From sequence record KM657822: a stretch of DNA of 64,000 nucleotides, one strand, 5' to 3'. Each line of letters begins with the position of its first letter. Within the stretch, counting starts at the first letter, position 1. A model generated the notes under the pieces. That model was given only the letters and a program-made list of their open reading frames with translations, was not told the DNA's origin and did no database searches. The DNA is from Escherichia phage vB_EcoM-VpaE1. Of this stretch, positions 20,474-22,190 are shown in pieces. Made by a program: the position numbers and the translations under genes.

Positions 20474-20938
20474 TTACTTTGGGTATACACTGTCAAGATA
20501 AATGTCAGCTTCCATTCTACGTCTGTTTTTCAGTCCGTTTGAAGTGACCTTCTGACCTTTGACTGTAACCTTGTTCCACCACTGCATAGCTTCTGCACAA
20601 CCTACCTTATTGCCAGCGTTGTGGCGCTTGATAAATGTAGAGTCCTGCATAGCTGTGATACCAATGTTGTATGTTTCACTTACAAGTGCATCAAACTCGT
20701 TCTGAGAAGTTGGAACCTTGATGGCTTTGTTCACTGCTGCAACGAACTTTTCAACATCTGCGAGAAGATACTGTTCAGCTTGTTCAGCGGTAATCTTCAT
20801 ACCCATCTTAACAGGCTTCCCACCAATACGAATTGTCCCATACCCAATTGTGGGGATTCCAGCAGAATCTTCGTAAGCCTCAAGCTTAAGACCTTCAAAG
20901 AACTTAATAGCTTCTAAACCTTTTCTTGAGAGTTGCAT
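20474..20938 (-). CDS. endolysin, phage lysozyme (GH24-like muramidase)
   Basis: FEGLKLEAYEDSAGIPTIGYGT matches the Glu/Asp/Thr catalytic region of T4/lambda-type lysozymes. Confidence 0.8.
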   Translation of the reverse strand: MQLSRKGLEAIKFFEGLKLEAYEDSAGIPTIGYGTIRIGGKPVKMGMKITAEQAEQYLLADVEKFVAAVNKAIKVPTSQNEFDALVSETYNIGITAMQDSTFIKRHNAGNKVGCAEAMQWWNKVTVKGQKVTSNGLKNRRRMEADIYLDSVYPK

Positions 20939-21822
20939 TATGCCTCCCCTGCTGGGTTAACGGTAACTGTTGCCGCATTAGATGTTACAGGGCCACCTGC
21001 GCCAGTAACTACACAGGTGTAGCTTCCTGAATCAGCAGCGGTTGCACCTTCTTTGGTGTAAGTTGCAGTAGTTGCATCGAGGATGTCTTCCTCACCTTTC
21101 TTCCACTGGTAACCTGTCGCACCTGTTGCCACAACATTCAGCGTTAAGGTCTCACCTTCAGTGATTTCTTGATTTGCTGGCTGTTGAGTGATTACTGGAA
21201 GTGCATTCACAGTAACTGTTGCTGCATCTGAGGTAACACTTGTTCCAGTCTCTCCAGATACAACACAAGTATAAGAACCAGCATCAGAAGGTGCTACAGA
21301 CTGTTTTGTGTAGGTTGCAGATGTGGCACTAGTGATATCCTCACCATCCTTTTTCCATTGATATCCAGTGGCATTAGTTGCAATAACACTTAGGGTAAGT
21401 GTGCCACCTTCATTTACTGTTTGGTTGGTTGGTTGCTGAGTGATTGATGGTGGCTTGATAGCATCCTTCAACTTAGCATTCAACATTGAGAACGGTTTAA
21501 CTCTTGCCAGCCATTCACAATAAACTGTGTCAACGTCTTTACCATTGATAATTGCATATTGTAAGTCCATGAAGAAGTCAGAAGTTCTCATTTGAGCACC
21601 AACGCTGTAAAGCAACTCATCACTAAATGGGACTTTATAGTCTGGTTTGTAGTCAAATTCCTCAACTTCTGCGATATCAGCTTCAGGCCAATATGAGCTA
21701 TAGGTTAGTGGTAAAATGGCCTCTTGATATGTCCTAAAGTCATATCTCTTACCAGCCTTTACATTTGCAATGAAGCCCTTCACAAACTCTTTGAAGTCTG
21801 GGTAAGTCTTTGCTTTAATCAT
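20938..21822 (-). CDS. protein with two tandem Ig-like domains
   Basis: Two about 90-aa repeats ending ...SYTCVV(S/T)G...ATVTVN; N-terminal domain paralogous to the adjacent upstream ORF. Confidence 0.55.
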   Translation of the reverse strand: MIKAKTYPDFKEFVKGFIANVKAGKRYDFRTYQEAILPLTYSSYWPEADIAEVEEFDYKPDYKVPFSDELLYSVGAQMRTSDFFMDLQYAIINGKDVDTVYCEWLARVKPFSMLNAKLKDAIKPPSITQQPTNQTVNEGGTLTLSVIATNATGYQWKKDGEDITSATSATYTKQSVAPSDAGSYTCVVSGETGTSVTSDAATVTVNALPVITQQPANQEITEGETLTLNVVATGATGYQWKKGEEDILDATTATYTKEGATAADSGSYTCVVTGAGGPVTSNAATVTVNPAGEA

Positions 21823-22190
21823 TTCTTTTTAGCCTCTAAATGTGCGTTTAGTCTAAAATAACCTTTGTGATGTGGAGATACATCACCAACAACAATACCT
21901 TTAACCTTATAATCTTTACCAATTACATACTGGATATCCATAAGGAATCTTCCAAGTCCAACAATATGGAACATTGGATATAATAGATTCTCAGAATCTG
22001 GAATATTGATTTCAGGTTTGTAGGTGCGTTGTTCGATTGTTGGTGTAATATCTTCTTCAGGCCATTTACTGAGTCTCCATGTCAAAGGTGTTGGGATAAC
22101 ATCATTAAGGTTGTACCTTTCACCATTTTGCACGGAATTGATATAGGATTGTAGGAAGCAATAAAAGTCTTTTGCACTCTTAGCTTTCAT
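21819..22190 (-). CDS. hypothetical protein, paralog of N-domain of Ig-like protein
   Basis: Shared blocks KAK..DF..F...I..V..G.RY with 20938..21822 N-terminus. Confidence 0.5.
   Translation of the reverse strand: MKAKSAKDFYCFLQSYINSVQNGERYNLNDVIPTPLTWRLSKWPEEDITPTIEQRTYKPEINIPDSENLLYPMFHIVGLGRFLMDIQYVIGKDYKVKGIVVGDVSPHHKGYFRLNAHLEAKKK

Follow-up and report, generated by a model that had tools for sequence, protein, structure and literature searches.

The window analysed here is a 64,000-nucleotide stretch of DNA from Escherichia phage vB_EcoM-VpaE1 (VpaE1 below; sequence record KM657822; positions are counted from its first letter), and our subject is a pair of adjacent minus-strand genes within it. 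The larger of the two encodes a 294-aa protein that is almost certainly the capsid decoration protein Hex-Dec, and the smaller encodes a 123-aa protein that is a paralog of only one part of Hex-Dec, the capsid-binding domain (CapBD) at its N-terminus. Both open reading frames (ORFs) were found at the coordinates and on the strand given by an earlier sequence-only reading of the window, which had also placed the pair beside the endolysin gene; a phage lysozyme gene does lie directly downstream, its start overlapping the Hex-Dec stop (TAATG at the junction). The three genes form one unit:

20938..21822, minus strand: gene for the 294-aa protein, very probably Hex-Dec; 31.6 kDa, isoelectric point (pI) 4.5
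21819..22190, minus strand: CapBD-only paralog; 123 aa, 14.4 kDa, pI 8.9, phrog_4463
20474..20938, minus strand: endolysin (phage lysozyme), 154 aa; PF00959 match with E 9e-41, phrog_7

The 294-aa protein and its orthologues

The identity of the 294-aa protein is shown both by its homology to solved structures and by published proteomics. In a phmmer search of the Protein Data Bank (PDB) it matched 9ncf_S (E 1.7e-245) and chain S of 9c2d/9c3a (E 1.7e-188), near-full-length and from residue 1, and phrog_3995 covers it over its full length (E 3e-170). In entry 9NCF, the capsid structure of Escherichia phage Bas63 (Felixounavirus), chain S is Hex-Dec (PMC12609058), and in 9C2D, which shows the capsid of Shigella phage Sf14 (Mooglevirus), chain S is gp20 (PMC11821841); cryo-electron microscopy (cryo-EM) has revealed both proteins as capsid decorations at hexamer centres (PMC11821841, PMC12609058). 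The third orthologue that we can name alongside Bas63 Hex-Dec and Sf14 gp20 is Felix O1 gp36, annotated as a 'tail protein' and detected in virions by proteomics with 14 peptides and 44% coverage (PMC3185647); its mass of 31,610 Da compares with 31,615 Da calculated for the protein in the window. On this evidence there is very little room for doubt that the 294-aa gene encodes Hex-Dec, and its product would be expected to work as published for its orthologues. Its domains are laid out as follows:

21457..21822, minus strand: CapBD, aa 1-122, near-identical to 9ncf_S residues 1-122 (modelled CapBD)
21208..21456, minus strand: immunoglobulin-like (Ig-like) domain 1, aa 123-205; Pfam Ig_3/I-set, AlphaFold2 predicted local distance difference test score (pLDDT) ~95, all-beta
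20953..21207, minus strand: Ig-like domain 2, aa 206-290; Pfam Ig_2/Ig_3, 65% identical to domain 1, AlphaFold2 pLDDT ~95

The earlier reading had described two Ig-like repeats of about 90 aa; the two repeats stand, as judged both by Pfam and by the AlphaFold2 model, but each is shorter, at ~83 aa. The domain search that had been proposed as a check returned Ig_3 (E 3.3e-23), I-set (E 2.7e-16) and Ig_2, each with two matches above the curated cut-off. The objection that no Ig-like fold might be predicted fails, since the fold is predicted with very high confidence (pLDDT ~95 over residues 125-290), and the best PDB neighbours of the model are the tandem Ig domains of Robo, MuSK and titin (E ~1e-14). 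The two domains are identical at 55 of 85 aligned positions and at ~64% at the DNA level, a divergence that explains why Tandem Repeats Finder reported no DNA-level tandem repeat of the Ig modules. Across the loci compared, Hex-Dec is 210, 294, 377 or 461 aa long, and a variation from one to four Ig domains within the family has already been published (PMC12609058). The Ig protein is already known and hence ordinary.

In the Sf14 capsid, gp20 is salt-bridged through Arg79 and Arg107 to the capsid protein at Asp221, and the absence of Hex-Dec from the 3-fold hexamers is attributed by the Sf14 paper to a displacement of Asp221 relative to these two arginines (PMC11821841). The Hex-Dec of the window carries both R79 and R107, which are invariant in 25 of 25 orthologues, and the capsid protein of the window carries Asp221 (...HPKIRD221AY...). 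By analogy with the Bas63, Sf14 and Felix O1 orthologues, the window protein would sit as a single molecule in the middle of penton-proximal hexamers: one monomer may plug its CapBD into the centre of each of the 60 such hexamers in the T=9 shell, held in place by salt bridges from R79 and R107 to Asp221, with the two acidic I-set Ig domains projecting outward as a flexible fibre. The presumed task of such a fibre, by analogy with T4 Hoc, would be surface adhesion or the control of aggregation and not capsid stabilisation.

Database labels tell a different story, as Hex-Dec is often called a 'tail protein' or 'HK97 major tail subunit'. We considered an identity of the HK97 gpV type and rejected it, because the tail PHROGs phrog_158, phrog_853 and phrog_3575 match only aa 96-208, in the Ig part of Hex-Dec, and no tail-tube Pfam domain was found. 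These labels are misannotations that arose because of the Ig domains alone.

A conserved anchor-only paralog

The 123-aa gene proved to be a full-length paralog of the Hex-Dec CapBD alone, lying beside it as a tandem duplicate. The paralogy, which the sequence-only reading had also proposed, is seen in a BLASTP alignment to the N-terminal domain of Hex-Dec (39% identity over 97 aa, E 1e-16), in reciprocal cross-matches between the PHROGs of the two ORFs (E 2.8e-17 and 4.2e-14) and in a phmmer match to 9ncf_S (E 2e-11). It is seen in structure as well: when the AlphaFold2 model of the small protein was searched with Foldseek, the only PDB matches were 9ncf_S and 9c2d_S, over the full modelled length, with template modelling (TM) scores of 0.67 and 0.64. 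With residue 123 the protein stops right behind the anchor, so that it displays no Ig or other module; it has no Pfam match, and we found in it no motif, transmembrane segment or domain that would point to another activity.

Members of the small-protein family are 120-124 aa long and share 59 invariant positions among 26 cluster representatives that reach down to ~71% identity to the window protein. The pairwise ratio of nonsynonymous to synonymous substitution rates (dN/dS) of the small gene is 0.12 (290 pairs, dS up to 2.6), where the Hex-Dec CapBD has 0.046 and the first Ig domain 0.12, and the small gene is under purifying selection. It is intact in all 24 complete IMG/VR loci and in 231 of the 251 related phage records that match the region 19500-23500, and it is confined to phages that also have Hex-Dec.

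Between the small family and the Hex-Dec CapBD, 43 positions are fixed differently, versus 35 that are invariant in both. At the R79 column each of the 25 paralogs compared has Gly, and at the R107 column they have H, Q, N or K, in an alignment of paralog and CapBD that is less secure in its C-terminal third. The pI of the small protein is 8.9 in the window phage versus ~5 for most CapBDs, and net charge within its family ranges from -4 to +5. The small gene is mentioned neither in the Bas63 paper (PMC12609058) nor in the Sf14 paper (PMC11821841) or its supplement, and no description of it was found in the literature searchable on Hex-Dec, Ounavirinae or the capsid-binding domain. The anchor-only paralog is, apparently, a conserved and undescribed variant of a Hoc-like decoration system.

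Coupling, timing and virion data

The stop codon of the small ORF and the start codon of Hex-Dec overlap (ATGA) at 21819..21822, and the ribosome-binding site for Hex-Dec falls within the small gene:

21833..21836, minus strand: GAGG, Shine-Dalgarno sequence for Hex-Dec, within the small ORF near its 3' end

The stop/start overlap is 4 or 8 nt in all 24 complete IMG/VR loci and 1 nt in a divergent lineage (L031). Through the internal GAGG and the overlap, the small gene and Hex-Dec are translationally coupled. At the same junction, at 21822-21836 on the minus strand, there is an A-rich run, GCT AAA AAG AAA TGA, that resembles the one in dnaX; the 'tagaggct' motif is kept in all loci whereas the A-rich run is not kept outside Felixounavirus.

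The Felix O1 orthologue of the small gene is gene 37 (ORF81), the numbering having been verified through terminators t35 and t38 and through ORF75, ORF79, ORF81 and ORF82 of the record. In the Felix O1 microarray, the signals of ORFs 36 and 37 are highest at 60 min, as are those of head and tail genes, and the signals of ORFs 35 and 38 at 25 min (PMC3185647). The product of gene 37 does not appear in the list of Felix O1 virion proteins, in which there are proteins as small as 9.7 kDa (gp23) (PMC3185647), and the text of the VpaE1 article names only gp54, gp58 and gp68 beyond the Felix O1 set, none of which maps to this locus. As the small protein yields seven well-sized tryptic peptides, among them FLMDIQYVIGK and WPEEDITPTIEQR, it should be detectable by mass spectrometry.

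An old duplication and its natural variants

A word-indexed search with the CapBD gave only close relatives of 210 aa, and outgroups therefore had to be sought by an exhaustive profile search, in which a CapBD-only profile was run against 1.84 billion representatives. This yielded 12 CapBD representatives, all of them in Ounavirinae-like contexts wherever the context could be checked, and in the checked contexts the order is constant: a gene of ~185-206 aa, the CapBD gene and the endolysin gene. What follows the anchor is not constant, since in metagenomic relatives the CapBD carries an Ig module, a Big_2-like module or a disordered tail rich in K, S and E (L033 5001-5462 is among the fusion loci). 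Such varied displayed modules make the CapBD anchor a modular platform for display, and the constant locus order makes the seat of Hex-Dec beside the endolysin an ancestral family trait in Ounavirinae. One of the CapBD homologues, phi63_307, is labelled 'kappa-carrageenase', which is probably a misannotation.

The divergent lineage of L031 and L032 has both genes in the same order, the smaller encoding an intact 122-aa protein (P0097) and the larger a 298-aa protein (P0098). A profile scan of all ORFs at the loci of Erwinia phage M7, Yersinia phage P778, L033 and L036-L040 found a single CapBD copy in each. In a neighbour-joining tree the small family and the Hex-Dec CapBD family are each monophyletic, with L031 basal in both, and identity to the outgroups is 26% for the small family versus 32% for the Hex-Dec CapBD. 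The duplication is thereby shown to be both old and derived: it occurred after the split from the Kolesnikvirus-like and the Yersinia/Pectobacterium-phage-like lineages and predates the divergence of the Felixounavirus, Mooglevirus and L031 lineages.

The small gene has also been lost. In 19 records that make up one subclade (REP5-12, Tf, fBSPA4, fKMPT1, FGS030, mio, EcF-vB, SP116 (twice), Z31, P54 and CECAV_041), a single internal deletion of ~223 bp that includes the start codon has left a start-less remnant of ~190 bp, which still holds the ribosome-binding site of Hex-Dec at its 3' end (as in REP11, L004 2306-2497, and Z31, L003). As the deletion has been inherited by a whole subclade, the small gene must be dispensable for propagation. 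Phages of this subclade infect E. coli, Shigella and Salmonella, and in one of them, Z31, the Hex-Dec gene is broken as well, into ORFs of 134 and 55 aa. A second kind of variant is found in Salmonella phage SP3_SHan-2021 (MW296865.1; L002 2501-3379), where one copy has been lost and a single gene encodes a 292-aa chimera in which residues 1-48 of the paralog are joined to Hex-Dec at the common WPExDI motif. Apparently the tandem paralogs recombined unequally, an assembly collapse being the alternative.

Genomic surroundings

The source phage is a Felixounavirus, and many Felixounavirus genomes (for example LF82P9, E. coli O157 typing phage 1 and FSL SP-010) match its region 19500-23500 with a nucleotide identity of 94-96%; one record among these matches is labelled 'Staphylococcus', and its label or deposit is probably wrong or contaminated. 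Around the three-gene unit lie the following features:

20447..20464, minus strand: AGGCTCCTTCGGGAGCCT and then a T-tract, a strong intrinsic terminator that corresponds to Felix O1 t35
22215..22228, minus strand: hairpin GGGGCTGATGCCCC, identical to Felix O1 terminator t38
22238..22828, minus strand: 196-aa ORF, phrog_4034 (a function-unassigned PHROG), which Ounavirinae-like phages keep as the upstream neighbour of the Hex-Dec gene
36462..37565, plus strand: major capsid protein, found by tblastn with Felix O1 gp58 at 98% identity

The t35-type terminator ends the unit, and its other boundary is the t38-type hairpin, given as 'ggggctgatgcccctttaactatttat' in Table 2 of the Felix O1 paper (PMC3185647), which divides the 196-aa gene from the small ORF. 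The sequence-only reading was correct in setting the pair apart from the structural module: from the Hex-Dec gene it is 14.6 kb to the gene of the major capsid protein, which is on the opposite strand, and between them is a cluster of 25 tRNA genes (25483-30320) typical of Felix O1-like myoviruses. The position of gp36 away from the morphogenesis genes had been remarked on in 2010 (PMC3185647) and was again in 2025.

The 196-aa ORF has a syntenic homologue in L033 (E 3e-20), and in L031, M7, P778 and L039 its position is taken by a gene of similar length (183-206 aa), matched by length and position only. An identity akin to T4 Inh, suggested by a faint precomputed Phage_Inh_N match in the L033 homologue, was rejected as it could not be reproduced: hmmscan at E up to 10 gave no Phage_Inh_N match in six homologues or positional equivalents of this ORF. 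Upstream of the small ORF we considered CTATTTATAAGG as a shared motif of late promoters and likewise rejected it, as CTATTTATAAGG occurs 14 times in the window versus 8.4 expected, a count reached in 2 of 100 shuffles, barely above chance and in no pattern. There was no Rfam match for a structured RNA within 20000-23600. Two genes downstream of the endolysin gene, a 135-aa ORF (19624-20031, minus strand) encodes a run of 11 acidic residues (EEEEEEEEAEE) and is labelled 'D-alanyl-D-alanine carboxypeptidase' in relatives. On the other side, between the decoration/lysin unit and the tRNA cluster, is a plus-strand pair that is kept in the distant L033 and L039, consisting of a gene for a DUF5681 protein (23448-23819) and one for a 471-aa DUF2828 protein (23902-25317), the latter called 'RNA-binding protein' in some relatives.

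Possible roles of the anchor-only protein

It is tempting to speculate on what an anchor with nothing attached to it might do. The reading that we prefer, tentatively and with slightly less than half of our confidence, is that the small protein serves as an accessory, late and dispensable, which is not a stable part of the virion and still acts in the context of the capsid and Hex-Dec, because its fold, timing and coupling have all been kept but the arginine anchors have been lost and the protein is not seen in particles. It might transiently occupy the hexamer centres of immature or non-cognate capsomers, or it might instead partner the Hex-Dec anchor before docking, and either route would tune where and when the fibre is installed. 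Several considerations weigh against such an accessory. Any activity of the small protein is inferred, and the AlphaFold2 model of its fold is moderately confident (pLDDT 63.5, predicted TM score 0.66). Loss of R79 and R107 is no proof that capsid binding has been lost, since some single-copy outgroup anchors (P0100, P0102 and P0103) also have no Arg at the R79 column. Absence from particles is negative evidence, coming from a Felix O1 list that required at least 25% coverage (PMC3185647) and, for VpaE1, from the text of the article rather than its figure list. Finally, the adhesive function of Hex-Dec, whose installation would be tuned, is itself in the literature only inferred by analogy with Hoc.

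An intriguing but rather unlikely possibility is that the small paralog is a second, fibre-less decoration of the 20 hexamers on the true 3-fold axes, or of the pentons, with its altered residues suited to the shifted Asp221. The attraction of this idea is that the paralog differs at precisely the residues held responsible for keeping Hex-Dec off the 3-fold hexamers in Sf14 (PMC11821841); the complete CapBD fold and the late expression coupled to Hex-Dec would fit as well, and icosahedral averaging smears a monomer on a symmetry axis. Yet the Felix O1 virion list has a 9.7-kDa protein and other small proteins but no gp37 (PMC3185647), and the VpaE1 text names no additional protein from the locus, despite the seven good tryptic peptides that the protein offers. 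In Bas63, moreover, the remaining hexamers are without density (PMC12609058), and the subclade that lost the gene persists. A fuller version of the same idea, which we consider improbable, has the two paralogs sharing the capsid, such that Hex-Dec would take the 60 penton-proximal hexamers and the anchor-only protein would cap the 20 true-3-fold hexamers or hexamers in the prohead state; a second ligand would then, as part of the same improbable picture, have been missed by averaged maps and thresholded proteomes.

The duplicate may alternatively have left the capsid altogether for a role in host takeover, as an anti-defence decoy or in an interaction with the endolysin or lysis, its small helical/beta fold serving as a scaffold. 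We rate this, too, as rather unlikely, level with the second decoration, and these two are the main rivals of the accessory reading. In its favour, the family-specific fixed differences outnumber the shared invariant positions, the charge has switched from acidic to basic in the window phage, divergence from the outgroups has been faster than that of the Hex-Dec CapBD, the protein is missing from the Felix O1 virion list, and decoration proteins can moonlight, as does P4 Psu. Against it, the gene is coupled to and co-timed with Hex-Dec and not with early genes, it occurs only where Hex-Dec is present, and the protein shows no motif, transmembrane segment or domain match for another activity.

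It is very unlikely that the small ORF is a functionless leftover of the duplication, kept only for the Hex-Dec ribosome-binding site in its 3' end. The deletion remnant, which retains just that end, would accord with this, as would the loss of the gene from one clade without apparent harm, but a dN/dS of 0.12 along the whole ORF argues otherwise: the frame is intact, 59 residues are invariant, P0097 of the L031 lineage is intact, and a neutral ORF would have decayed at a dS above 2. Less credible still is a -1 ribosomal frameshift on the A-rich run that would fuse the small ORF to Hex-Dec and produce a fibre with two anchors. Hex-Dec is in the -1 frame, AAA AAG stands one codon before the stop and no stop intervenes, but neither the slippery run nor the frame relation is conserved, the run being absent from Mooglevirus-type loci and L031 and the 8-nt overlap of L027 and L028 amounting to another frame relation; in addition, Felix O1 gp36 is listed at its unfused mass and no gp37 peptides were reported (PMC3185647). 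That both proteins are tail proteins, as many GenBank/RefSeq records and PHROG 3995 have it, can be set aside with near certainty, as the labels reflect tail similarity confined to the Ig domains and cryo-EM puts the orthologue on capsid hexamers (9NCF, 9C2D).

For the Ig protein, which calls for no further explanation, the practical value lies in the relabelling of a widespread 'tail protein' as 'capsid decoration protein (Hex-Dec)'. A loose end of modest size is left in the small paralog, in a group of phages used for typing and biocontrol of Salmonella and E. coli, and a natural experiment is at hand for it, with one clade that has the gene intact, another that has deleted it and a single chimera. 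If the paralog were to bind the capsomers that Hex-Dec avoids, or to gate the loading of Hex-Dec, it would show how quasi-equivalent hexamers are distinguished, and at 14 kDa it would be a minimal anchor for display on capsids; should it have moved out of the capsid context, it would illustrate in compact form the re-use of a structural domain.

Comparison with known systems

The closest relatives of the window system are those of Bas63 and Sf14, whose Hex-Dec and gp20 are orthologues of the 294-aa protein, with R79 and R107, C-terminal Ig domains and a locus beside the endolysin gene outside the structural module; the Bas63 CapBD is near-identical to that of the window. They differ in the number of Ig domains, of which there are two in the window protein, four in Bas63 and three in Sf14. 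The 123-aa paralog differs from all of these in having the anchor fold only, without either of the two Arg anchors and without Ig domains.

Like Hex-Dec, T4 Hoc is an acidic, non-essential monomer at the hexamer centre that combines a small capsid-binding domain with a string of Ig-like domains varying in number (PMC12609058, PMC11821841). However, the anchor of Hoc is C-terminal whereas that of Hex-Dec is N-terminal, a reversal that both papers point out together with the unrelated, pseudo-C2-symmetric build of the Hex-Dec anchor, which is larger and topologically distinct (PMC12609058). The Hoc-like PHROGs 2973, 4069 and 3945 match only aa 121-292 of the window protein, which is the Ig region and not the CapBD, and the window Hex-Dec is not a member of the T4 Hoc family. 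No description of an anchor-only paralog of Hoc was found in the literature searched.

The other decoration systems that can be compared are set apart by anchor, by occupancy or by what is displayed. In T5 pb10 the anchor has no sequence relation to the CapBD detectable in the profile search of 1.84 billion proteins, and pb10 occupies all 120 hexamers whereas Hex-Dec occupies 60 of 80. Erwinia phage M7 gp008 (Kolesnikvirus; L041) and Yersinia phage P778 ORF016 (L042; 'head outer capsid protein') share with the window a CapBD at the same locus, but neither is accompanied by an anchor-only gene, and in these single-copy fusions the place of the I-set Ig domains is taken by another module, which in M7 is Big_2.

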